DNA of 64,000 bases, taken from positions 24,800,001 to 24,864,000 of the forward strand of contig CM126230.1 in assembly GCA_052327205.1 (NCBI GenBank), read 5' to 3'. Shown piece after piece: positions 25,389 through 42,223 of this stretch (position 1 is its first letter; every line of letters starts with the position of its first letter). Below the pieces are notes generated by a model. The model saw only the letters and a program-made list of their open reading frames with translations, was not told the DNA's origin and did not search any database. The position numbers and the translations under genes were made by a program. Source of the stretch: Somniosus microcephalus. Lineage: Eukaryota.

Positions 25389-27148
25389 GGCCGCGATTTT
25401 ACTTACCTCGGCGGGTCAGTGGCAGGTCCCAATCCCGCTGCTGGCTCCATCCTGCTGTCTAAAATTACTTTCCGTTGATGGGGCTTGTTAAGCCTGCCCA
25501 GCACGTTACCCAGCCCAATTAGAGGAAGCAGATCTGGTGACGTCATTTTATGACGCGTCACCAGCCGGTTTCCTTAAAGGGACCATAGCCAACTTTGTCT
25601 TGACATTTGTGCTGTCAGTGTTTGACAGCATTGAGGTGCTGCAAACACTGGCAATCACTGCACAAAGGCACAGAGCTGCACCCAGGATCTCCCATGACTC
25701 ACTCCATATGCTTATGGAGGGAGTCACAGCACACAGGGAGGTCCTCTTCCCTTCCCATAGGCAGAAGAGATCTTCCCAGGAGATCAACACAGTCTGGTTG
25801 CCCATTGCAGAGGAGGGCAGAAGCAGTGATGTCATCAGGAGGACCTGGGTGCAGTGCCACAAACGTTTCAATTATCTCAGTAGATCACGAAACATTAGTA
25901 CAAAACCACACTCAACCTCATCCTGCTGTGCCTCTCATCACATCCCCATCACTCTGCCTTCCCTACCCTACTCCTGCACATCCTTACTCACACCAACTTA
26001 CCTTGCACCTCCACCCATCCCTCTCTATCTATATTATCACATCCCCATCTCACTAGTCACCCCTCACACTCACCCTCATCCTAGTGCAATCATACCAACT
26101 AACAACACACAAGGGTAGGCAATTGGGTGTTTTATGCAATGTTCATGTGAAGTTTCTGTTAATGTGCTGTCAAACATTGAAACCTTTATTTTCAACAATT
26201 TGCGTTCTTGGACAGATTTGTGTGCATGTTTGGAAGTGGCTTAGTGAGTTGCAGTGAATGGTGAGACATAACGGTACCCCCCGCAATGGTGATGAGTGTG
26301 AAAGGAATGGCTTGGACATTGTAGGGATGCTTTATGGTGTTGGTGTGGGGCAGTGCCAACCTGGCAGATCATGTGGCAGCCAGGGTGTACAGCGTCAAGT
26401 GAAGTAACTCTGGCCATGGTGAGGCCAACCCGGGCCTCCCAGGCAGCAATGTGGTCGGGTGCTGAGGCCCTCTCTCCTGTGCAGCATCAGTTGATTGCGG
26501 AGAAGGTTGGTGTTGTTGTCGGTGCTGCTGGTGTGTCTGGTGCTGCTGGTGTTGGGGCTGATCATGGTCAGATTCTGAGGACCAAAGTGAGACAATATAC
26601 AGGGCATCCATGTTGATGGAATAGATGGCAGGTGAAGTAGAGATGACAGAAGCGATCTGTCAATGGTGAGAGAGTTCTTCCAAAGAGGTGAGTGTTGTTG
26701 GAGAGTGGAAAGTGGAAAGCCTGCAGAATGAGTTCTGGAAATGGAGTGAGAAAAAGCTTCTGCCTGAGGAAAGTGAATATCAGTCCGGTGGGAGCTTTTA
26801 CTGTACATTTGAAGCTGTCAGTAATTAGCTGGAGCAATGACCACTGAATTCACACCTCAGCTTGACAGCTGTGGTCTGCGCACAGCGGGGATCCCATGGT
26901 CATGAAGTTAAAGACAAAAGGTAAGTGAAAAAAGGCTGTTAAGCATCTGGCAACTAGCCGCTAATCATTTTAATTAGGTCCCCGGTCGCTGCCGGTCGGG
27001 TCTGCTCAGCGTTGACAGACCCAACATTTGGAAAGGCGCGTGGTGGGGGGTTCACAGCGGGGTCCCGGCCCACTGTAAAAAAAAAAAACACTTTCCCACC
27101 CGACCCACCACCGATCCCACCCACTGACCCCCCCGGAAAATCCCGGCC
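25389..27148. mobile_element. Internally deleted Harbinger relic with Myb/SANT remnant
   Basis: TIR GGCCGCGATTTT...AAAATCCCGGCC, TSD TAT/TAT; APRISHDSLHMLMEGV...WLPIAEE...RRTWVQCHKRFNYL. Confidence 0.88.
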
Positions 27149-27600: not shown

Positions 27601-28018
27601 TACAACAACAACAACCTGTATTTATATAGTGCCTTTAACGTAGTAAAACGTCCCAAGGCGCCGCACAGGAGTATTTTAAGACAAAAAAAAAATTGACACC
27701 GATCCACATAAGGATAAATTAGGGCAGGTGACCAAAAGCTTGGTCAAAGAGGTGGGTTTTAAGGAGCGTCTTAAAGGAGGAAAGAGAGGTAGAGAGATGG
27801 AGAGGTTTAGGCAGGGAATTCCAGAGCTTAGGGCCCAGGTAACAGAAGGCACAGCCACCAAAGGTGGAGCGATTATAATCAGGGATGCTCAAGAGGGCAG
27901 AATTAGAGGAGCGCAGATATCTCGGGGGGGTTGTGGGGCTGGAGGAGATTACAGAGATAGGGAGGGGCGAGGCCATGGAGGGATTTGAAAACAAGGATGA
28001 GAATTTTGAAATCAAAGC
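27601..28018 (-). mobile_element. L2 LINE 3' fragment
   Basis: AFCYLGPKLWNSLP...FKTLLKTHLF; (ttg)n tail. Confidence 0.9.
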
Positions 28019-28139
28019 GCTGTGTTTACTCCGTGTCTTACATGCAGTATAAAAATGCACGCTAAGGTCTTGTTAAAGATCAATCCTGATGACATTGTGC
28101 AGCCTTGAGTAGAGGGGATTAATAGTGTTGGTAATAGTG

Positions 28140-28822
28140 TTGAGCTGAGCTTCCGACCCCATATCCTCTCCATCACCAAGACCACCAACTTCCACCCCTT
28201 AACATTGCCCGTCTCAGGTCAGCACTATTAGCTGCTGAAACCCTCATCCATGTCTTTGTTACCTCTAGACTCGACTATTCCGATGCTTTCCTGATCGGAT
28301 ACCCATGTTGCACCCTGTGAGCTCATCCAAAACTCTGCTGCCCATATCCTAACTCTCACCAAGTCCCGTTCACCTATCACCCCTGTGCTTGCTGACCTAC
28401 ATTGTGTCCTGGTCTACTAACGTCTCAATTTTTAAATTCTCATCCTTGTCTTCAAATCCATCCATGGCCTCGCCCCTCCTTAGCTCTGTAACCTCCTGCA
28501 GCCCTTCGACCATCCAAGATCTCTGCGCTCCTCCTATTCTGGCCTCTTGTGCATCGCCAATTTTCAACACTCCACCATTGGTGGCCGTGCCTTCAGCTGC
28601 CTAGACCCTAAAGTCTGGAATTCCCTCCCTAAACCTCTCCGCCTCTCTCTCCTCCTTTAAGACACTCCTTGAAACCTACCTCTTTGAACAAACATTTAGC
28701 CATCTGTCCTAATATCTCTGCATGTGACTCGTGTCAGATTTTCTTTGATAATGCTCCTGTGAAGCACCTTGGGACATTTTACTATGTTAAAGGTACTATA
28801 TAAATAAAAATTGTTGTTGTTT
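28140..28822 (+). mobile_element. L2 LINE 3' fragment
   Basis: Degenerate AETLIHVFVTSRLDY...LIQNSAA...SPITPVLADL; ttgttgttg tail. Confidence 0.9.
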
Positions 28823-30530: not shown

Positions 30531-31412
30531 TCTCAGTGCTTCTTCCAGTACTGATTCATCAGCTGAGGTTTGTGGTAATCAGCAGGAGGTTTCTTTGCCC
30601 AAGTCTTTCTAATATGCACAGAGATTTTAACAAAAGCAGAGCAACAAATTCAGGAGGCTGCCTGTACCTAGCAGTTACAAAGATTCAAGGAGATTTGATA
30701 AATACCGATAATCTACCTCCACTTGTACTGGGGAGCTAAGAAGGAGCAGATAGATTGAAGGACTTAATCAGACAGTCCCATTCTTCAATCAGTCCATCTA
30801 TCCTCAGTTCCCTGGTACAGTACACACAGGCATCCATTATTGCTTAATTATAACAGTATAAGACATAGAATGTAATAAAAATTATTAAAGTGATAAATGA
30901 TACCATTAAAATATTCATTATATGCAGTGTACTCCATTCACATCACACTCTATTCAGTTAATAAAAGTGTCCTAACATCGTTTAGTGCAAAGCTAGATTG
31001 ATCACATTTGTCTTTTCGATGCAGTCCTTAACACTGCCGTGAGCTAAAAGCTTCTCCGGAGAGCTGCAGTGTTTGAGGTCACCTTATTAAAAAGAACAAA
31101 GTTATATTCCTGCAGTAATTGCATTAAGGGCATCCCTGGTAGTTTAATGCTACATTTCCCAGTCCTTTCAAAAGCTTTTAATAGCAGTTTTAGATCTTTT
31201 TGAAGACCAGCTCAGTGCCATAATGAAGAGCAATGAAGTCTACCAGAGCTCGGAGCAGAATGATAACTCAGTTCTCATGTAATATAGTGTGGCCTTTTTA
31301 GTCTACACATGAGATTCAGGGCCCTATTTTGTATTCAGCAGCATCAAAGGTGGCATTGGTAAAAAGAAAAATCAATCTTACATATATTTTTGCGCTAGGG
31401 CTAATTCCACTG

Positions 31413-31627
31413 TGTGGTAAACCACTGTTTGTATTCCACTGTGTACATGCCTGGACATGCCTCGGCTGACTCCTCCCACAAGTCCTAGTATAAAGGTGAC
31501 TGCTCCCCAGCCCTTTGTATTTCTGGACCGGTCGACCACTCGAGGCAGACCTTCATTCTTTTGTTAATAAAAGCCTTTAGTTACTCTCTTAACTCTCAGT
31601 CTTTTATGAGTAATTGATAGCGCATCA
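31413..31627 (+). repeat. 5' LTR (215 bp) with TATAAA (~31488) and AATAAA (31566)
   Basis: Matches the 3' LTR by eye except for a 2-bp indel near the start. Confidence 0.97.
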
Positions 31628-31650
31628 ATTTTATTAACAAAATTTTTATA

Positions 31651-34600
31651 ATGGAGAAGATCCTCACACCAGCATGCCTGGACTTAGATCATCGGGAGGC
31701 AGACTCATCCACCAAGTTTACTCACTGGCTTAAGTGTTTCGAAAAATTCCTGACCGCCTCCGCAGCAATCAAATCGGACGAGGACAAACTGGATGTCCTG
31801 ACCTCCAAAGTGAACCACCGAGTGTACTCGATCATCCAAGACGCGACCTCGTACGCGGACGCTATCAAGCTCCTCAAGGACCAGCACACGCGCCCAGTGA
31901 ACGAAGTGTACGCCAGGCACCTTCTGGGGAGTCGTAAACAACAACCTGGGGAATCGACCGTGGAATACCTTCAGGCACTGTCTGTGCTTGGCCGGGCCTG
32001 TGGTTGTAAGGATGTAAAGGCCGCCGTGTACACAGAGGAACTTATCCGGGACGCTTTTGTAGCGGGCCACAGATCCAATTACACCCGACAGCGACTGTTG
32101 GAGCAGAGTGACCTCGACCTCAACAAAGCCTCTGAACTCGCACTATCATTGGATGCAGCCTACCAGGGCATGGATGCCTACTCCTCTGCACCGTGGACGC
32201 CGCGGGGAATGACAGCCTGGGACACGGTAGGACCGCCTCATAGCGCCGTGCCACCCCAGCCACACCCCAGCAACGGCCCAACTACCGCAGCAGTGTCCCA
32301 AGGCCAGACAGCAGTGCCCCAAGGCCAGAAATGCTACTTCTGTGGCCAGGCAAAACACCCCAGAGTGCGCTGCCCGGCGAAAAACGTGACCTGCTCGGGC
32401 TGCGGGAAGAAGGAACACTACGCTAACGTCTGCAGGGCCAAAGCCACCCCGAACCCCAGCAGCGCCGCGTGTGGGCCATGCGGGCCGCCATCTTGGGCCT
32501 CCCCGGCCATGGGCGAACCACCGGTACAGCAGCCATTTTGGACGCCTCCAGCCACATGGGGATCATGGACGCCGCCATCTTGGACGACAGCCGGAACGCA
32601 GCAGGCCCCCAACACCGCCTCATCTGATACCCGCAGCGACACACCGACCCCTACGCTGGCATCCGTTACACTGGACCAAGCGAGACCGCACCAGCTGGCC
32701 AGTTCCACAATGGACATTAAGGTAAATGGCCACGATACAATCTGCCTTTTTGACTCTGGGAGCACGGAGAGCTTCATCCACCCCGACACGGTGCGGCGTT
32801 GCTCTCTCCCAGTCCTGCCTGCGCACCAGCGGATTTCTATGGCCTCCGAGTCCCAGTCGGTGGACATCGGCGGCTACTGCGTAGTGACACTCGTAGTAGA
32901 CGGGACCGTGTACGATCATTTTAAACTTCTGGTCCTGCCCGACCTCTGCGCTGCCGTCCTGCTGGGGTTAGATTTTCAGTGCCACCTTAAAAGTGTTACG
33001 ATGGCGTACGGTGGACCCCTACCCCCACTCACAGTCCGCAGCCAGCAGCTCCCAAATTGCCCGCCGCGCACCAGGTGCAACCTCTCCACACTCAGAGTCA
33101 CCCCCCCCCCACTGTTTGCTAACCTCACCCCCGACTGTAAGCCCATCGCCACAAAGAGCAGGCGATACAGTGCCGGGGACAGGGTTTTCATTAAAACCGA
33201 AGTGGAGCGGCTCCTGAAGGAAGGGATTATTGAGGGCAGCACCAGCCCCTGGCGAGCCCAGGTTGTGGTCGTTAAGACCGGCGAGAAGCAGCGGCTGGTC
33301 ATCGACTACAGCCAGACAATAAATCGCTACACCCTGCTGGACGCCTACCCACTCCCCCGCATAGCTGATATGGTCAACCAGATCGCGCAGTACCGCGTCT
33401 TCTCGACCATTGACCTGAAATCAGCGTACCACCAGCTCCCTATCCGCCCTGAGGACCGCCAGTATACTGCCTTTGAGGCAAACGGCCGCCTCTACCACTT
33501 CCTTAGGGTTCCCTTTGGCGTCAAAGGGAGATGGACCGGATGGTAGATCAAAATGCGTTGCAGGCCACTTTCCCATATCTGGACAATGTGACCATCTGCG
33601 GCCGTGACTTGCAGGACCATGACGCAAACCTCGAAAAATTCCTCCGCACCGCCCAACTCCTGAACCTGACATATAACAAGGAGAAGTGCATATTCCGCAC
33701 AAACCGCCTCGCCATCCTTGGCTGTGTTGTGGAACACGGAGTCATCGGCCCCGACCCCGACCGGATGCGTCCCCTTATGGAACTCCCACTGCCTCAAGGC
33801 CCTGAAGAGGTGCCTAGGGTTTTTCTCCTATTATGCCCAGTGGGTCCCCTACTATGCGGACAAGGCCCATCCGCTGATCAAGTCCACCTCTTTTCCCTTG
33901 ATGGCAGAGGCCCGCTTAGCCTTCCACCGTATCAAGGAAGACATTGCCAAAGCCACCATGCACGCAGTGGACGAATCCATCCCCTTCCAGGTGGAAAGCG
34001 ACGCGTCCGACTTTGCCCTGGCCGCTACCCTCAATCAGGCGGGGAGACCCGTGGCCTTCTTTTCACGAACCCTCCAAGGCCCGGAGACCAGACACTCCGC
34101 TGTTGAGAAGGAGGCCCAGGCGATTGTGGAGGCTGTGCGTCATTGGAGGCACTACCTGGCCGGAAAACGATTTACCCTGCTCACTGACCAGCGTTCAGTT
34201 GCTTTCATGTTTAACAACAAGCAGAGGGGCAAAATCAAAAATGACAAGATCTTGAGGTGGAGAATCGAACTTTCCACCTACAATTACGAGATCTTGTACC
34301 GGCCCGGGAAGCTCAATGAACCCCCGGATGCGCTATCGCGTGGCACCTGCGCCAGCGCGCAGATCGATAGACTGTGGGCCCTCCACAATGACCTCTGCCA
34401 CCCGGGGGTCACCAGGTTCTTCCACTTCATCAAGGCCCGCAACCTGCCTTACTCTATTGAGGAGGTCAGGACCATGACCAGGAACTGCCAAGTCTGCGCT
34501 GAGTGCAAACCGCACTTTTATAGACCAGACAGGGCCCACCTGATAAAAGCCACTCGCCCCTTCGAGCGCCTGAGCGTTGATTTTAAAGGGCCTCTCCCCT

Positions 34601-35408
34601 CCTCCGACCGCAATGTGTACTTCCTCAATATTATTGATGAGTACTCCCGTTTCCCGTTCGCCATCCCCTGCCCGGACATGACCAGTGCCACGGTCATTAA
34701 ATGTCTGAACGACCTCTTCACCCTGTTCGGTTTCCCCAGCTATATCCATAGCGACCGGGGCTCATCGTTTATGAGCGACGAACTCCGTCAGTACCTGCTA
34801 ACTAGGGGTATTGCCACAAGCAGGACCACCAGTTACAACCCCCGGGGGAACGGACAGGTGGAAAGAGAAAATGCGACAGTTTGGAAGGCCGCCCTGCTAG
34901 CCTTAAAGTCTAGGGGCCTTCCAACCTCCCGCTGGCAGGATGTGCTCCCCGATGCGCTCCACTCTATTCGGTCACTGCTCTGCACTGCCACTAACGCCAC
35001 CCCTCATGAGAAAATGTTTGTCTTCCCAAGGAAGTCCACATCGGGGACATCGCTACCGCCATGGCTGACGTCCCCAGGGCCGGTCCTACTGAGAAGGCAC
35101 GTGGGACGCATAAAACGGACCCCCTGGTCGAGAGGGTCGACCTCCTCCACGCCAACCCCCAGTATGCTTACATTGCATACCCGGACGGGCAGGAGGACAC
35201 AGTCTCCATAAGAGACCTTGCACCCTCGGGGGCCGCAGTAACCCACTACTCACTACCACCCCCCCCCACGATCCGATATCCAGCCCCAGCAGACGGCAGG
35301 CCTGGGCCCCGCGACCCGCTCGACATCTACGAGGACGACACGCCTGTGCCACAGCCTACGCAGGACTCGACGCCGGAAGCTCCACTACCCCTGCCGTCGC
35401 CACGCTGA
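31651..35408 (+). pseudogene. Fused gag-pol polyprotein with three frame breaks (~33525, ~33790, ~35110)
   Basis: Two CCHC knuckles (CYFCGQAKHPRVRC, CSGCGKKEHYANVC), protease LFDSGS, RT IDLKSAYHQ...PFG...YLDN, RNase H ESDASDFAL...EKEAQAIV, integrase HHCC plus VDFKG...HSDRG...GQVER. Confidence 0.93.
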
Positions 35409-35501
35409 TCACAGCGGCAGACAAGACCTCCGGAGAGACTCCAATACACTAACTTTTAATACACTTCACCCCGCCGGACTCAATTTTAAACAAGGGGTGA
35501 A

Positions 35502-35714
35502 TGTGGTAAACCAGTTTGTATTCCACTGTGTACATGCCTGGACATGCCTCGGCTGACTCCTCCCACAAGTCCTAGTATAAAGGTGACTGCTCCCCAGCCC
35601 TTTGTATTTCTGGACCGGTCGACCACTCGAGGCAGACCTTCATTCTTTTGTTAATAAAAGCCTTTAGTTACTCTCTTAACTCTCAGTCTTTTATGAGTAA
35701 TTGATAGCGCATCA
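35502..35714 (+). repeat. 3' LTR (213 bp)
   Basis: See 5' LTR. Confidence 0.97.
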
Positions 35715-35967
35715 CACTGTAGTTCTTTGGGGGTGAGGAACAACCACTGACCTCAACGTCACTGAGCTGGTGGCAGCGTTTAATCCAATAAGGATTCCTA
35801 CTCCTGATTGCCAACAGCAACTTCTGCTAGAAATGAGTATGCCAGGGCATCCGAGTGCAAACAGGGTAAACTTTAATTGTGATTCCCCTCTCCCAGGCTC
35901 AAATAGCCTGCCAGCACTTGGTGCCCACCTTGTGGAGAGTTCCCCTGTAGGCAAGGTGATGAACAGT

Positions 35968-37284: not shown

Positions 37285-38127
37285 GGGCAGGATTTTCATT
37301 GGGCTGTGGAGGCGGGATTGGAGGCGTGTGGGGGTTAAAATACCGAAATCGGGGGGCACAAACCCATCCCGCCCCCAACCCGCCTCCATGCCAATTTCAA
37401 AGGAGGCGGGTACCCGCCCCGCACTGGGACCCGCCTCCCCGAGGCGGGAAGGGGATTAGTGCCAATTAACTGCCTGTTAACAGGTAGTTAACAGGCAGTT
37501 TTTAGCCTAATCCCTATTTTTAATGTTGAAGTGTGGGATTCCCGACGGCTCCAAACCACGCCAAGTTAGAGGAGACGGACCGTCGGGATGAAGGGCTTGG
37601 AGGGTTCGAGATGTCGGTGTTCAGGTGAGTGATGGGTGCATGAGTGCAAAGGTAAGTGTGTTTGGTGTGTGTAAAGTGTTTAAAGAAGTTTTACATACCT
37701 TTACTTACCTTTACAACCTTCCTTCCTTCAGGTCTCGGGAGTCCCTCATCTCATCGGCACAGAAAGCAGAATGGCTGCGAGCTGTCAAAAATTGCAGCAT
37801 TCAGATTTCTGTTCCAGAGAGATCTCTAAATCATCCTGAGAGGAAGGAATTAACCTGGAGTACAGATTGTCAGTGTTTGGCAGCTTCAAACAGCTGTCAA
37901 ACGCTGATATTTCATCTGTCAAAAGGTCTTGACAGATGAAATATCAATCTGTGACGTCACCTGTTGCCGGGTGGCCCTTAATTGGCCTGCTGAGCCCACT
38001 GGGCGGGCTCAACAAGGTCAATCAAATCAAAATCGCGTGGGTTGGCTAGAACTCGATGGAGGCGGGACTACAACCCTGAAAGTTGTAGTCCCGCCTCCTA
38101 CCCACCTCCTCAATGAAAATCCAGCCC
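37285..38127. mobile_element. Harbinger-type MITE, family C
   Basis: TIR GGGCAGGATTTTCATTG...CAATGAAAATCCAGCCC, TSD CAC/CAC. Confidence 0.92.
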
Positions 38128-38599
38128 CACATGTGATATTTTTCATGTTTCTCCCTCTCCAATTTTCCCTTCACTGAGGAAGCGACCAGACTAAAATGTC
38201 GACTTGTCTGTTCTCTCCACAGATGCTGAATAATCTGCTATGTGTTTCCAGCTTTTGTTTCAGATTTCCAACGCTTGGAGTATTTTGCTTTTTATTTGAA
38301 GTGAATCGTGTTGGTTTACCGTTCGACATGTTTCAGCAATCCTCCCGTGCATTGTCTGAGTTCCCATTCTTCAAGAGTGTAATCCCAGATATTGATTGTC
38401 AAGTGGGTCTTCAACTGTGGGGAGTTGAGAGGCAGAAGTCTCACAAACAAGCTCGATCTTACTTGCCTTCCATGAATGCACACTTCCAGCAAGAGTCCCT
38501 GCTTAAGAATCAGGAGTGGCCAATTTCTGCCCCCACCCTATAGTCCAGGGTGTTGAGGCCAACTATAGTGTGTCAACCACTGTCCTAGCTGAGGTCAAC

Positions 38600-38713
38600 T
38601 AACTTTTCCAGTTCTGATGAAGGGGCCCAGACCTGAAACGTTAACTCTGTTTCTCTCTCCACGGATGCTGCCTGGCCTGCTGAGTATTTCCAGCATTTTC
38701 TGTTGTTATTTCA
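38600..38713 (+). ncRNA. Penelope-type terminal repeat with a minimal hammerhead ribozyme core
   Basis: agtt CTGATGA agg ggcccaga cct GAAAC gtt aact, followed by ctgtttctctctccacggatgctgcctggcctgctgag. Confidence 0.7.
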
Positions 38714-38727
38714 GCACAGACCACGAC

Positions 38728-39935
38728 TGATCCTGGGACCCTCCTGCTCTGAATGGCACGATCCTGGGACCCTCCTGCTCTGAATGGCGTGATCCTGGGA
38801 CCCTCCTGCTCTGAATGGTGTGATCCTGGGACCCTCCTGCACTGAATGGTGTGATCCTGGTCCCCTCCTGCTCTGAATGGTGTGATCCTGGGACCCTCCT
38901 GCTCTGAATGGTGTGATCCTGGGACCCTCCTGCTCTGAATGGCGTGATCCTGGGACCCTCCTGCTCTGAATGGTGTGATCCTGGGACCCTCCTGCACTGA
39001 ATGGTGTGATCCTGGTCCCCTCCTGCTCTGAATGGTGTGATCCTGGGACCCTCCTGCTCTGAATGGTGTGATCCTGGGACCCTCCTGCTCTGAATGGTGT
39101 GATCCTGGGACCCTCCTGCTCTGAATGGTGTGATCCTGGGACCCTCCTGCCCTGAATGGTGTGATACTGGTCCCCTCCTGCTCTGAATGGTGTGATCCTG
39201 GTCCCCTCCTGCTCTGAATGGTGTGATCCTGGTACCCTCCTGCTGTGAATGGTGTGATCCTGGGACCCTCCTGCTCTGAATGGTGTGATCCTGAGACCCT
39301 CCTGCTCTGAATGGTGTGATCCTGGGACCCTCCTGCTCTGAATGGTGTGATCCTGGGACCCTCCTGCTCTGAATGGTGTGATCCTGGGATCCCCCTGCTC
39401 TGACTGGTGTGATCCTGGGACCCCCCTGCTCTGACTGGCGTGATCCTGGGACCCTCCTGCTCTGAATGGTGTGATCCTGGGACCCCCCTGCTCTGACTGG
39501 TGTGATCCTGGGACCCCCCTGCTCTGACTGGCGTGATCTTGGGACCCTCCTGCTCTGAATGGTGTGATCCTGGGACCCCCCTGCTCTGACTGGTGTGATC
39601 CTGGGACCCCCCTGCTCTGAATGGTGTGATCCTGGGACCCCCCTGCTCTGACTGGTGTGATCCTGGGACCCCCCTGCTCTGACTGGCGTGATCCTGGGAC
39701 CCTCCTGCTCTGAATGGTGTGATCCTGGGACCCCCCTGCTCTGACTGGTGTGATCCTGGGACCCCCCTGCTCTGACTGGCGTGATCTTGGGACCCTCCTG
39801 CTCTGAATGGTGTGATCCTGGGACCCCCCTGCTCTGACTGGTGTGATCCTGGGACCCCCCTGCTCTGAATGGTGTGATCCTGGGACCCCCCTGCTCTGAC
39901 TGGCGTGATCCTGGGACCCTCTTGCTCTGAATGGC
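38728..39935. repeat. 31-bp minisatellite (about 39 copies)
   Basis: Unit gatcctgggaccctcctgctctgaatggtgt; 31-aa cyclic ORFs in all three minus frames. Confidence 0.97.
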
Positions 39936-40585
39936 ATATACAACAACAACCCATGCATTTACCCACAGGACAATGACACATTTGGCTTTTGCAATTTTAA
40001 AAAAAATCATGAAATGGAGGAAAATAACTTTAGGACAGATATCAGACAAGGACCTCTTCATCAAAAAACAATCAAGATTTGGAATGGTCTTCTGGATAAG
40101 ATAGTGAAGGTGAAAACCTTAGATTTACTCAAAATCCAGTTGGATAACATGATGGGGGAACAGCAAGATTTCTCTCTCGATAAATAAGCTAAGATGGGCC
40201 GAATGGCTTCCCACAGCTGTATTTATCATGTGATCTTAAATTTCAGGAGACAGATCTTTCTTTGTGTTTGTCTATAAATTACAGTTTCAGTGTCAGTCTA
40301 CAAGTGGCCAATCCTAGTGGCAGAGGGAGGTACACCCGCTAAATTAATTTTAAAAAGGGAAGAAGAATTTTTCACGCACAGAAATGAAAGGTCAAGGAAA
40401 AAAATGATTGGCTGTACCAGCACCAATCAAAGGCAACCTGGGGTGGCATCAAGTTGACTAGAACATACGTGGATTGATTGGTTCATCCCATTGACGACAC
40501 ATTTCTACACTGCTGACTCCACATGATTTTTGTAAAGGTGTGACTGAAATGCAGAGCAGCAGAGTATGGTGCTGGGAGACACAAA

Positions 40586-42223
40586 GGGGGCGATTTTCTC
40601 AGCCCCGAGGAGGCGGGTATGGTCGCGGGACTGCCGGGAAAATGGCAGAATTTGGGGGCAGGTGGCAAACCCATCCCCAACCCGCCTCCATGCCATCTTC
40701 CCAAGAGGCGGGTAGCCGTCCCGCGCCGGGTCCCGTCTCCTTGGAGGCGGGAAGGGATTAAAGCCTATTAACTGCCTGTTAACAGGTAGTTAACAGGCAG
40801 AAAATAGGATTATCCCCTTTTTGCCCTCAAAGGTGTGGGCTTCCTGAAGGCTCCAAAACCCGCCAACTCAGCGAGGCGAGTACTGGGTCTGCGGGCGTCG
40901 GGGGGGGGTGCAAAAGTGTGGTGTGAAGGTAAGTGATGGGTGCAAGAGTGGAGAGGTGAGTATCTAAGGTAAGTCCTAAGTATTTTTAAAAGTGTACTTA
41001 TCTTTGTTTCTTCCTGCAGGCTTCAGTCAGTTTCTATACAGAGAGTCTCGCACCTCCGTGTTGCAGATAAGAGATGTCCGTTGCATTCTCATATGCAACA
41101 AACACCTCGGGCTGGATTTTCAATGAGGAGTCGGGTAGGAGGCGGGACTACAACTTTCGGGGTTGTAGTCCCGCCTCCATCGAGTTCTAGCCAACCCACG
41201 CGATTTTGACTTGATTGACCTTGTTAAGCCCGCCCAGCGGGCTCAGCAGGCCAATTAAGGGCCACCCGGCAACAGGTGACGTCACAGATTGAAATTTCAT
41301 CTGTCAAGACCTTTTGACAGATGAAATATCAGCATTTCACAGCTGTTTGAAGCTGTCAAACACTGACAGTCTGTACTCCAGGTTAATTCCTTCCTCTCAG
41401 GATGATTTAGAGATCTCCCCGGAACAGAAAGCTGAATGCTGCAGATTTTGACAGATCGCGGCCATTCTGCTTTCTGTGCCGGTGAGATGAGGGACTCCCG
41501 AGACCTGAAGGAAGGAAGGCTGTAAAGGTAAGTAAAGGTTAGTAGAACTTCTTTAAACACTTTACACACACCAAACACACTTACCTCTGCACTCATGCAC
41601 CCATCACTCACCTGAACACCGGACATCTCGACTCCTCCAAGCCCTTCATCTTGATGGCCCGCTTCGCTAACTTGGCGTGGTTTGGAGCCGTCGGGAATCC
41701 CATATTTCAAGAATGAAAATAGGGATTAGGCTAAAAACTGCCTGTTAACTACCTGTTAACAGGCAGTTAATTGGCACTAATCCCCTTCCCGCCTCGGGGA
41801 GACGGGTCCCAGCACAGGTCAGGTACCCGCCTCCTTTGAAACTGGCATGGAGGCGGGTTGGGGGCGGGATGGGTTCGTGCCCCCCTGATTTCGGGATTTT
41901 AACCCCCCACACGCCTCCAATCCCACCTCCACGGCCCAATGAAAATCCTGCCCCTCATTTCTATAAAAGAAAGAAGGTTGATGAGGTCTTGTATGCAAGA
42001 CCTCATCAAACTGCAGAGATTGTCACTGTCAGAGAGCTATCAAACGATGACAATTTATCTGTTAAAAGTTCCCTTAATTGGCCTGCTAAGCCCGCTGGGC
42101 GGGCTTAACAAGTTCAATCAGGGGAAAATAGCGTGGGTTGGCCACAACTTGATGGAGGCGGGACTAAAACCCGACAAGCAGCAGTCCCGCCTCCAACGCG
42201 CCTCCATTCTCAAAATCGCCCCC
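40586..42223. mobile_element. Harbinger-type MITE related to family C, hosting a nested family C copy
   Basis: TIR GGGGGCGATTTT...AAAATCGCCCCC; subterminal blocks resemble family C. Confidence 0.85.
41109..41953. mobile_element. Family C MITE, inverted relative to 37285-38127
   Basis: TIR GGGCTGGATTTTCA...TGAAAATCCTGCCC, TSD CTC/CTC. Confidence 0.92.

Follow-up and report, generated by a model that had tools for sequence, protein, structure and literature searches.

A Ty3/Gypsy element in the analyzed DNA carries, directly behind its 5′ LTR, a candidate primer-binding site (PBS) exactly complementary to a segment of its own LTR, and related elements keep this complementarity while the paired sequences themselves diverge. 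The preliminary description of this DNA had proposed that the element primes reverse transcription with its own RNA rather than with a tRNA. Because the two partners change in a compensatory manner across 17 families, no TGG follows the LTR in any of 74 loci, and the duplex keeps a fixed register to the LTR end, we consider self-priming the best reading. The sequence comparisons thus suggest that members of this clade probably start minus-strand DNA synthesis with their own RNA, independently of tRNA and in a manner resembling Tf1.

Architecture of the element

The element occupies positions 31413 to 35714 (4,302 bp) of the window, i.e., the whole 64,000-nt stretch of DNA that was analyzed. 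It has the features expected of Ty3/Gypsy elements (TG...CA LTRs, a target-site duplication, and a polypurine tract), and Pfam domain matches place protease, reverse transcriptase (RT), RNase H, and integrase in the Gypsy order. The best solved-structure match of an intact relative was Ty3 Gag-Pol (E = 3.5e-62). The features are as follows.

31408 to 31412: left target-site duplication, CACTG, the same 5 bases as at 35715 to 35719
31413 to 31627, forward strand: 5′ LTR, 215 nt, TG...CA; differs from the 3′ LTR by one 2-nt indel and is otherwise identical
31489 to 31494, forward strand: TATA-like box (TATAAA), read from the sequence; the putative start is the A at 31519 (TATA+30)
31559 to 31572, forward strand: candidate self-primer arm in the LTR, exact complement of 31629 to 31642; covaries with the PBS in 17 families
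31573 to 31623, forward strand: second helix (31573 to 31586 with 31608 to 31623, imperfect) and its loop, predicted by folding; proposed template of the first cDNA
31628, forward strand: one-base spacer (A) between the LTR end and the primer site, read from the sequence
31629 to 31642, forward strand: candidate PBS without TGG, complementary to the element's own LTR
31651 to 33546, forward strand: open reading frame (ORF) with Gag (two CCHC knuckles), aspartic protease, and the start of RT
33483 to 33821, forward strand: middle part of RT in another frame, with the catalytic motif YLDN at 33576 to 33587
33787 to 35211, forward strand: RT connection, RNase H, and integrase zinc finger and core
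35112 to 35408, forward strand: C-terminal part of integrase in another frame, without a chromodomain
35488 to 35501, forward strand: polypurine tract, ending in AA before the 3′ LTR; the layout is alike in relatives
35502 to 35714, forward strand: 3′ LTR, 213 nt, TG...CA, with a copy of the arm at 35646 to 35659
35715 to 35719: right target-site duplication, CACTG, matching the left copy

The pol frame of the window copy is broken three times (near 33,520, 33,800, and 35,110), and the element is best explained as a young insertion, with a broken frame, from a large clade of animal Gypsy elements. Three frame changes against zero substitutions between the LTRs point either to a copy that moved in trans or to assembly errors. 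Two DNA sequencing runs carry the identical left junction, and one of these may be the window's own source.

The window holds other repeat structures. Inverted arms at 37285 to 38134 and 41102 to 41953 (520 nt at 95% identity and 249 nt at 90%) surround a 31-nt tandem array at 38573 to 40061, and related copies lie at 40639 to 40993, 42071 to 42217, and 25466 to 25527. The structure looks like a nonautonomous inverted-repeat element. Nested inverted repeats at 27604 to 28821 (arms of 83 to 135 nt, 76 to 87% identity) form a fold-back of ∼1.2 kb.

The primer position pairs with the LTR

Behind the 5′ LTR of the window copy, a single A (31628) is followed by TTTTATTAACAAAA at 31629 to 31642, which is the exact reverse complement of 31559 to 31572. 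The pairing stops at these 14 nt and extends on neither side. The arm ends in AAA(A) at its 3′ end and is followed by GCCT, and it contains the AATAAA hexamer at 31566 to 31571; the arm starts 70 nt downstream of the TATAAA at 31489. Gag begins with the ATG at 31651, 23 nt past the LTR end, and the absence of a TGG primer site in this short leader holds as read in the preliminary description. The exact complementarity to the AATAAA-bearing LTR segment, also claimed there, was matched in none of the shuffled sequences of two separate tests: when the leader was dinucleotide-shuffled, 0 of 5,000 sequences gave a 14-nt match (maximum of 13, reached in 7 shuffles), and when the LTR was shuffled, 0 of 5,000 did so (maximum of 11). 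Among 586 other 215-nt stretches of the sequence, 0 held such a match (maximum of 11). When folded, the 181-nt region reached −38.7 kcal/mol (z = −2.73), a stability equaled in 1 of 200 shuffles. No tRNA genes were found within the window.

Primer site and LTR covary across 17 families

Relatives were collected by aligning Gag against metagenome contigs, and the best 80 of 255 confirmed matches were used. Together with the window copy, this gave 81 loci, of which 74 could be scored and were grouped into 17 families by gag DNA identity; the remaining seven had either too little upstream DNA (L059, L076, L023, L060, and L062) or no anchor (L008 and L072). Twelve of the families come from five copy-sharing assemblies, probably representing one host, and the other five come from five separate sources. 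The anchor was the LTR-end motif closest to the ATG and was picked independently of pairing. Where a second repeat was found (12 loci), it ended exactly at the anchor CA (before A-TTT) in 7 cases, overran it by chance matches in 4, and was a different repeat in 1. At L046, a different direct repeat pair of 146 nt (89% identity), located 437 nt upstream of gag, brackets the element, which is possibly nested in another LTR element.

For the pairing score, each site was compared with the upstream 150 nt, taking the 14-mer that pairs best without gaps. Against their own LTR, 29 loci scored 14, 17 scored 13, 16 scored 12, 5 scored 11, and 7 scored 6 to 9; in other words, 46 of the 74 reached 13 or 14 pairs and 62 reached at least 12. 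When LTRs and sites were combined across families (n = 4,848), no combination reached 13 and only 26 reached 12. Chance pairing within an AT-rich stretch is ruled out by these cross-family scores and the shuffles above. The preliminary description had pointed to compensatory changes in relatives as the way to check the duplex, and complementarity is indeed kept in every scored family: the family median was 12 to 14 of 14 pairs in 17/17 families, with differing letters. The Gag proteins of the families are 33 to 46% identical to that of the window copy, and site positions 5 to 13 have a mean identity of 48% among the 17 family representatives. TGG was absent from the first 8 nt past the LTR in all 74 loci.

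Inspected by eye, the low-scoring loci have had their upstream part replaced or deleted, or their anchor was missed. One low scorer, L033, holds a 13-nt match, and the unanchored L008 holds an 11-nt match. By eye, the stretch from the arm to the LTR end is seemingly inverted in L006, and the 5′ LTR of L037 is without an arm.

Anatomy of the duplex

The layout follows a fixed register: the LTR end, one A, and a Watson-Crick duplex of ∼15 bp that ends in AAA|RCC; in most cases a small hairpin comes next. Pairs were counted in 66 of the 74 loci (leaving out L006, L014, L033, L037, L070, L077, L079, and L080), and the spacer was A in 65 of the 66 under an anchor rule that permitted only A or G. 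Taking the best copy per family, selected for pairing, each of pair positions 4 to 15 shows two to four types of Watson-Crick pair, and these selected copies total 241 Watson-Crick pairs, 2 G-U pairs, and 12 mismatches. The family-level Watson-Crick fraction is 0.79 to 1.0 at pairs 1 to 15, drops to 0.41 at pair 16, and lies at chance (0.07 to 0.39) beyond. Duplex length (12 to 18) is independent of the distance between the LTR and the ATG (15 to 61 nt), and the gap from the arm to the LTR end is 19 to 59 nt across families. Over the first 13 pairs of the 45 distinct arm/site combinations, the non-Watson-Crick positions comprise 8 G-U, 14 A-C, and 18 others, i.e., there is no enrichment of wobble pairs. 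This is the expectation if the site takes its sequence from the primer by copying, and the missing G-U excess is partly owed to neutral decay after insertion.

Some letters of the arm are conserved. Counted from the 3′ end, arm positions 2 and 3 are A in 17/17 families, and the site always starts with TTT. Position 10 (31563 in the window copy) is G in 13/17 families (P of about 2e-6) and position 11 (31562) is A in 11/17. Several arms (TCAGT/TTAGT) resemble an initiator motif. Judging from this conservation, the (A/T)G at positions 11 and 10 could mark a transcription start site that gives a primer of 11 to 12 nt, or it could reflect a sequence need of an enzyme.

Right after the arm, 13 families have GCCT, 2 have ACCT, and one each has GCTA and GCCA; an RCCT:AGGY hairpin of at least 4 bp starts at the arm junction in 14/17 families, compared with a null mean of 5.1 and a maximum of 11. 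The summed length of this second helix is 77 against a null mean of 50.9, and 0 of 2,000 shuffles were as high. G-U pairs make up 7 of its 52 first pairs in a search that allowed them. The window copy is one of the three exceptions, with two contiguous pairs from the junction, and folds instead as an imperfect 14-bp helix. The second helix stops 4 to 38 nt before the LTR end and is thus not adjacent to the PBS. We also searched for a pretzel-type duplex that would join the loop to sequence behind the site, and none stood out (sum of 104 versus 108 in the null; 422 of 500 shuffles were as high). A role of AGGY as a downstream promoter element was rejected, as its distance from the arm varies.

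The poly(A) signal within the arm

According to the preliminary description, the same duplex could mask the poly(A) signal at the 5′ LTR only. Folding of the window copy agrees with this claim: the probability that AATAAA is unpaired is 0 to 0.02 in the 5′ context and 0.47 to 0.98 in the 3′ LTR, where the arm copy (35646 to 35659) has no downstream partner and the hexamer is therefore predicted to be mostly open. Folding gives this contrast in most families as well, with the exceptions of L038, L040, and L051. The claim does not extend to all families, however, as 8 have AATAAA in the arm, 3 have ATTAAA, 2 have GATAAA, and 4 lack all three, so that a canonical hexamer (AATAAA/ATTAAA) lies within the arm in 11/17. 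Since the strand jump needs a repeat and so few nucleotides separate the arm from the LTR end, the poly(A) signal would have to sit at the 3′ end of the arm. We therefore regard masking at the 5′ LTR, which would be brought about by the primer duplex itself, as plausible but secondary, a consequence of the priming layout.

RNA reads and transcript ends

We aligned two raw RNA runs (X7 and X8, which share their species label with a DNA run) and two DNA runs to positions 31340 to 32240. About 5,300 reads per RNA run match at ≥90% identity, meaning that the signal stems from the family and not from the window copy alone. One orientation dominates in gag (about 800 versus 20 in X7) and was taken as sense. 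At the partner sites 31560 and 31641, changes occur at like frequency in the RNA (unphased): sense reads carry them in 126/206 and 49/79 cases, and in 11/206 and 6/79, in X7, and in 91/288 and 38/146, and 48/288 and 32/146, in X8. Agreement between the two sites is poorer in the DNA contigs of X1 (31% and 21%; 20% and 30%). For a third change, at 31639, a partner was absent among the variant rows listed.

The preliminary description considered the arm probably not to be the 5′ end of the RNA. Within the element's own family, the reads hint in this direction. The ratio of sense to antisense reads is 0.34 to 0.53 up to 31525, starts rising in the bins from 31495 to 31556, and in bin 31526 to 31556, wholly upstream of the arm, is 1.0 in X7 and 0.47 in X8. 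This rise would fit an RNA start near TATA+30 (31519), upstream of the arm, and could be mimicked by subfamilies with divergent sequence upstream of 31521 or 31560. In the other families, no TATA was found at a fixed distance from the arm, only TATA-like words in a few copies at 28 to 95 nt. Neither X7 nor X8 had a pileup of sense read starts inside the LTR, and no poly(A) tail in the LTR was seen among the loose ends listed for the RNA runs.

Two further patterns appear in these runs. Over U3, reads of the opposite orientation are more numerous than sense reads, and they dwindle within gag (31402 to 31680, X7 and X8), as could arise from antisense solo LTRs or from an outward promoter near the gag start. 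In X7, sense depth climbs from ∼140 to 900 over the first 230 nt of gag (31650 to 31900). This climb may reflect RNAs that start at or after the primer site, comparable to the nonprimable Tf2 transcripts described in the available text of PMC5341516, or a hairpin that blocks library synthesis.

A self-priming model and its alternatives

Under self-priming, the 5′ copy of the arm would pair with the primer site inside the particle, and RNase H would, as in Tf1, cleave the RNA at AAA|GCC or one base away from it; the cut position would move by one if the cDNA end is 2 nt. The freed 3′-OH would then prime copying of the 19 to 59 nt back to the cut, giving a strong-stop DNA of 20 to 60 nt. This short cDNA would transfer to the 3′ LTR, onto the part that lies between arm and poly(A) site. 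Plus-strand synthesis would finally copy the primer into the site, and this copying would keep the arm and site strictly Watson-Crick while they drift.

The duplex might instead be a regulatory hairpin that conceals the poly(A) signal of the 5′ LTR in the manner of HIV-1 or controls gag translation, with priming by some other route. The predicted pairing of AATAAA at the 5′ LTR and its opening at the 3′ LTR are in line with such a role, as are the canonical hexamers in the arms of 11/17 families (plus GATAAA in 2 more) and the ATG that closely follows the duplex in many families. Yet the helix begins one base past the LTR end in all families, which is the primer position for a correct cDNA end, and a leader of 15 to 30 nt leaves no space for another site. 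Furthermore, the duplex is kept in the 4/17 families without even a near-canonical hexamer in the arm, and G-U pairs are not enriched. We thus judge a purely regulatory duplex unlikely. We see a similarly slim chance for priming from the 3′ end of the transcript, in which the arm copy of the 3′ LTR, ending in AAA, would act on the same or a copackaged RNA with no internal cut. Templated covariation would look identical in that case, the invariant AAA end of the arm and TTT start of the site would suit it, and an RNA start upstream of the arm may leave an R region for the jump. In the 11/17 families with a hexamer inside the arm, however, the cleavage site for polyadenylation would be expected 10 to 30 nt downstream of the arm and not at the arm end, and the poly(A) tail would need exact removal. 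The local 5′ arm is also predicted to occupy the site, and the hairpin conserved directly behind the junction argues against this route as well.

That a tRNA half or another host small RNA primes synthesis, the LTR match being secondary, appears very improbable. Half-tRNA priming is known in Copia lineages, as described in the available text of PMC6317226, but the sites here differ between families (48% identity over positions 5 to 13) and track each family's own LTR, which a conserved host RNA cannot do, and no Rfam match was found in 31300 to 31800 at E values up to 1. Taken together, we regard the duplex as a real feature, and the best reading is that self-priming, a known mechanism, occurs here in another RNA architecture and in a chromodomain-less animal clade.

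Comparison with known systems

The closest likeness is to Tf1 and Tf2 of Schizosaccharomyces pombe, Tj1, Tosmo1-3, Tcry1, and the Tf1/sushi chromoviruses, which are likewise Ty3/Gypsy elements with no tRNA site (PMC7175516, PMC10085805, and PMC4600332, as far as the available text goes). In these elements, too, the PBS complements the element's own 5′ LTR and lies directly past the LTR end, and a second helix adjoins the primer duplex. In Tf1, RNA bases 1 to 11 pair with the PBS, with RNase H cleaving between bases 11 and 12 (PMC7175516), a DNA copy of the primer is made at the cDNA end (PMC11042837), and in the pretzel structure outer duplexes link PBS-adjacent sequence to the LTR (PMC10085805), again in the available portions of these papers. 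The clade differs in having a duplex of ∼15 bp instead of 11, no three-duplex pretzel, a distance of only 15 to 61 nt between the LTR and the ATG, and an arm that overlaps the poly(A) signal. The Tf1 primer is the 5′ end of the RNA; the arm of the clade is a candidate primer, and RNA reads from the family of the window element hint at an RNA start upstream of it. Unlike the Tf1/sushi group, the clade has a mostly YxDN RT motif and lacks a chromodomain (none in four frames of the window copy at E values up to 0.01 or in six of six intact relatives at E values up to 0.1).

For the plant elements Tcn1 (Gypsy) and TAR (Copia), self-priming has been recognized by an LTR complement of at least 10 bp located 0 to 5 bp past the 5′ LTR (PMC6317226, available text), and the same arrangement is present in the window element. 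Tcn1 elements are chromoviruses and TAR elements are Copia, however, and both are from plants. Among animal elements, the flatworm Gypsy elements Saci2 and lennie resemble the clade in having one gag-pol ORF, and relatives of the clade also occur in flatworms. Membership in that group was rejected: Saci2 and lennie have a 4-bp target-site duplication, consensus lengths of 4.7 to 5.2 kb, proteins of mostly ∼1,400 aa, and tRNA sites (available text of PMC12471100 and PMC4558846), as opposed to 5 bp, 4.0 to 4.3 kb, ∼1,200 to 1,250 aa, and no TGG in the clade. The 5-bp duplication was found in the window copy, L002, and L005, with 4 of 5 bases matching in L047.

Elements of the CsRN1 clade have a tRNA-Trp site and a 4-bp target-site duplication, both of which are absent here. 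The window LTR starts with TGTGGTA and others start with TGTTGTG; the former agrees at 6 of 7 positions with the TGTGGYG reported for CsRN1 (Table 3 of PMC3601003, available text).

In HIV-1, AATAAA is held in a stem of the 5′ LTR within R/U5, and priming is by tRNA-Lys3. The element studied here shares the AATAAA in a 5′ LTR stem, in our case by folding only, and the GC right after the A run; the partner strand, by contrast, is found beyond the LTR, at the primer site. The Ciona element Cigr-1 is ∼4.2 kb in length, with short LTRs and one ORF of ∼1,200 aa, and Gag proteins of the Mag lineage have two CCHC knuckles. In size, our element would fit Cigr-1, and in its double CCHC it would fit the Mag lineage. 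The available text of PMC6238403 names the Cigr-1 and Mag clades and gives no primer data.

Extent of the clade and implications

The relatives are best explained as one clade of elements of ∼4.0 to 4.3 kb with a single gag-pol ORF of ∼1,200 to 1,250 aa, a YxDN RT, and no chromodomain. Among 126 long relatives, the RT motif was (Y/F)xDN in 104 and YxDD in 19, with no match in 3; the window copy has YLDN. Of 8,000 scored candidates, 1,273 proteins belong to the clade, and 795 clusters (at 50% identity) match the Gag profile at E values up to 1e-30. The nearest named proteins are those of the shark Mustelus asterias (57 to 58% over Gag), which makes a cartilaginous fish the probable host of the window copy, and named hosts include shark, Hydra, whipworms, flukes, tapeworm, snail, and cockroach. 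Scans of viral contigs gave no relative, and a protein-atlas search gave generic Gag clusters only.

The available text of eight papers places self-priming in Tf1/sushi, Tcn1, and TAR (PMC6317226, PMC3601003, PMC4600332, PMC6238403, PMC6934838, PMC5006619, PMC5341516, and PMC9873768), and in the same set Skipper, fungal GalEa, and biv-TRIM are other tRNA-less cases, without an LTR complement. Neumann et al. take self-priming as a mark of the Tf1/sushi and Tcn1 group (PMC6317226, available text). A literature match concerning the Hessian fly (PMC9873768) was discarded, as the text available there concerns PCR. Within the available open literature, self-priming is not described for the present clade; the primary Levin and Butler et al. 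papers, GyDB, and Repbase lie outside this scope, and an earlier description is therefore possible. The available open texts on Cigr, CsRn1, and YxDN likewise hold no primer data for the clade, and their YxDN matches concern BEL/Pao only.

We tentatively raise the possibility, doubtful as it is at this point, that the clade represents a second, independent origin of self-priming in Ty3/Gypsy. In this scenario, the primer would not be the first nucleotides of the RNA but would be cut from inside R at AAA|GCC and would carry the poly(A) signal, so that one 15-bp duplex both primes and silences 5′ polyadenylation. The LTR and PBS would drift together through primer copying, no longer dependent on the tRNA supply or exposed to silencing by tRNA fragments, in a clade with a YxDN polymerase that extends from cnidarians to sharks.

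If self-priming in this clade is true, it either has more than one origin or goes back further than assumed, which bears on the question of whether hairpin priming preceded tRNA priming (PMC3601003, available text). It would also account for PBS finders missing such elements, and the families would offer a natural covariation series for how RNase H chooses its cut in an RNA duplex. Finally, it predicts that these elements escape control by 3′ tRNA fragments.
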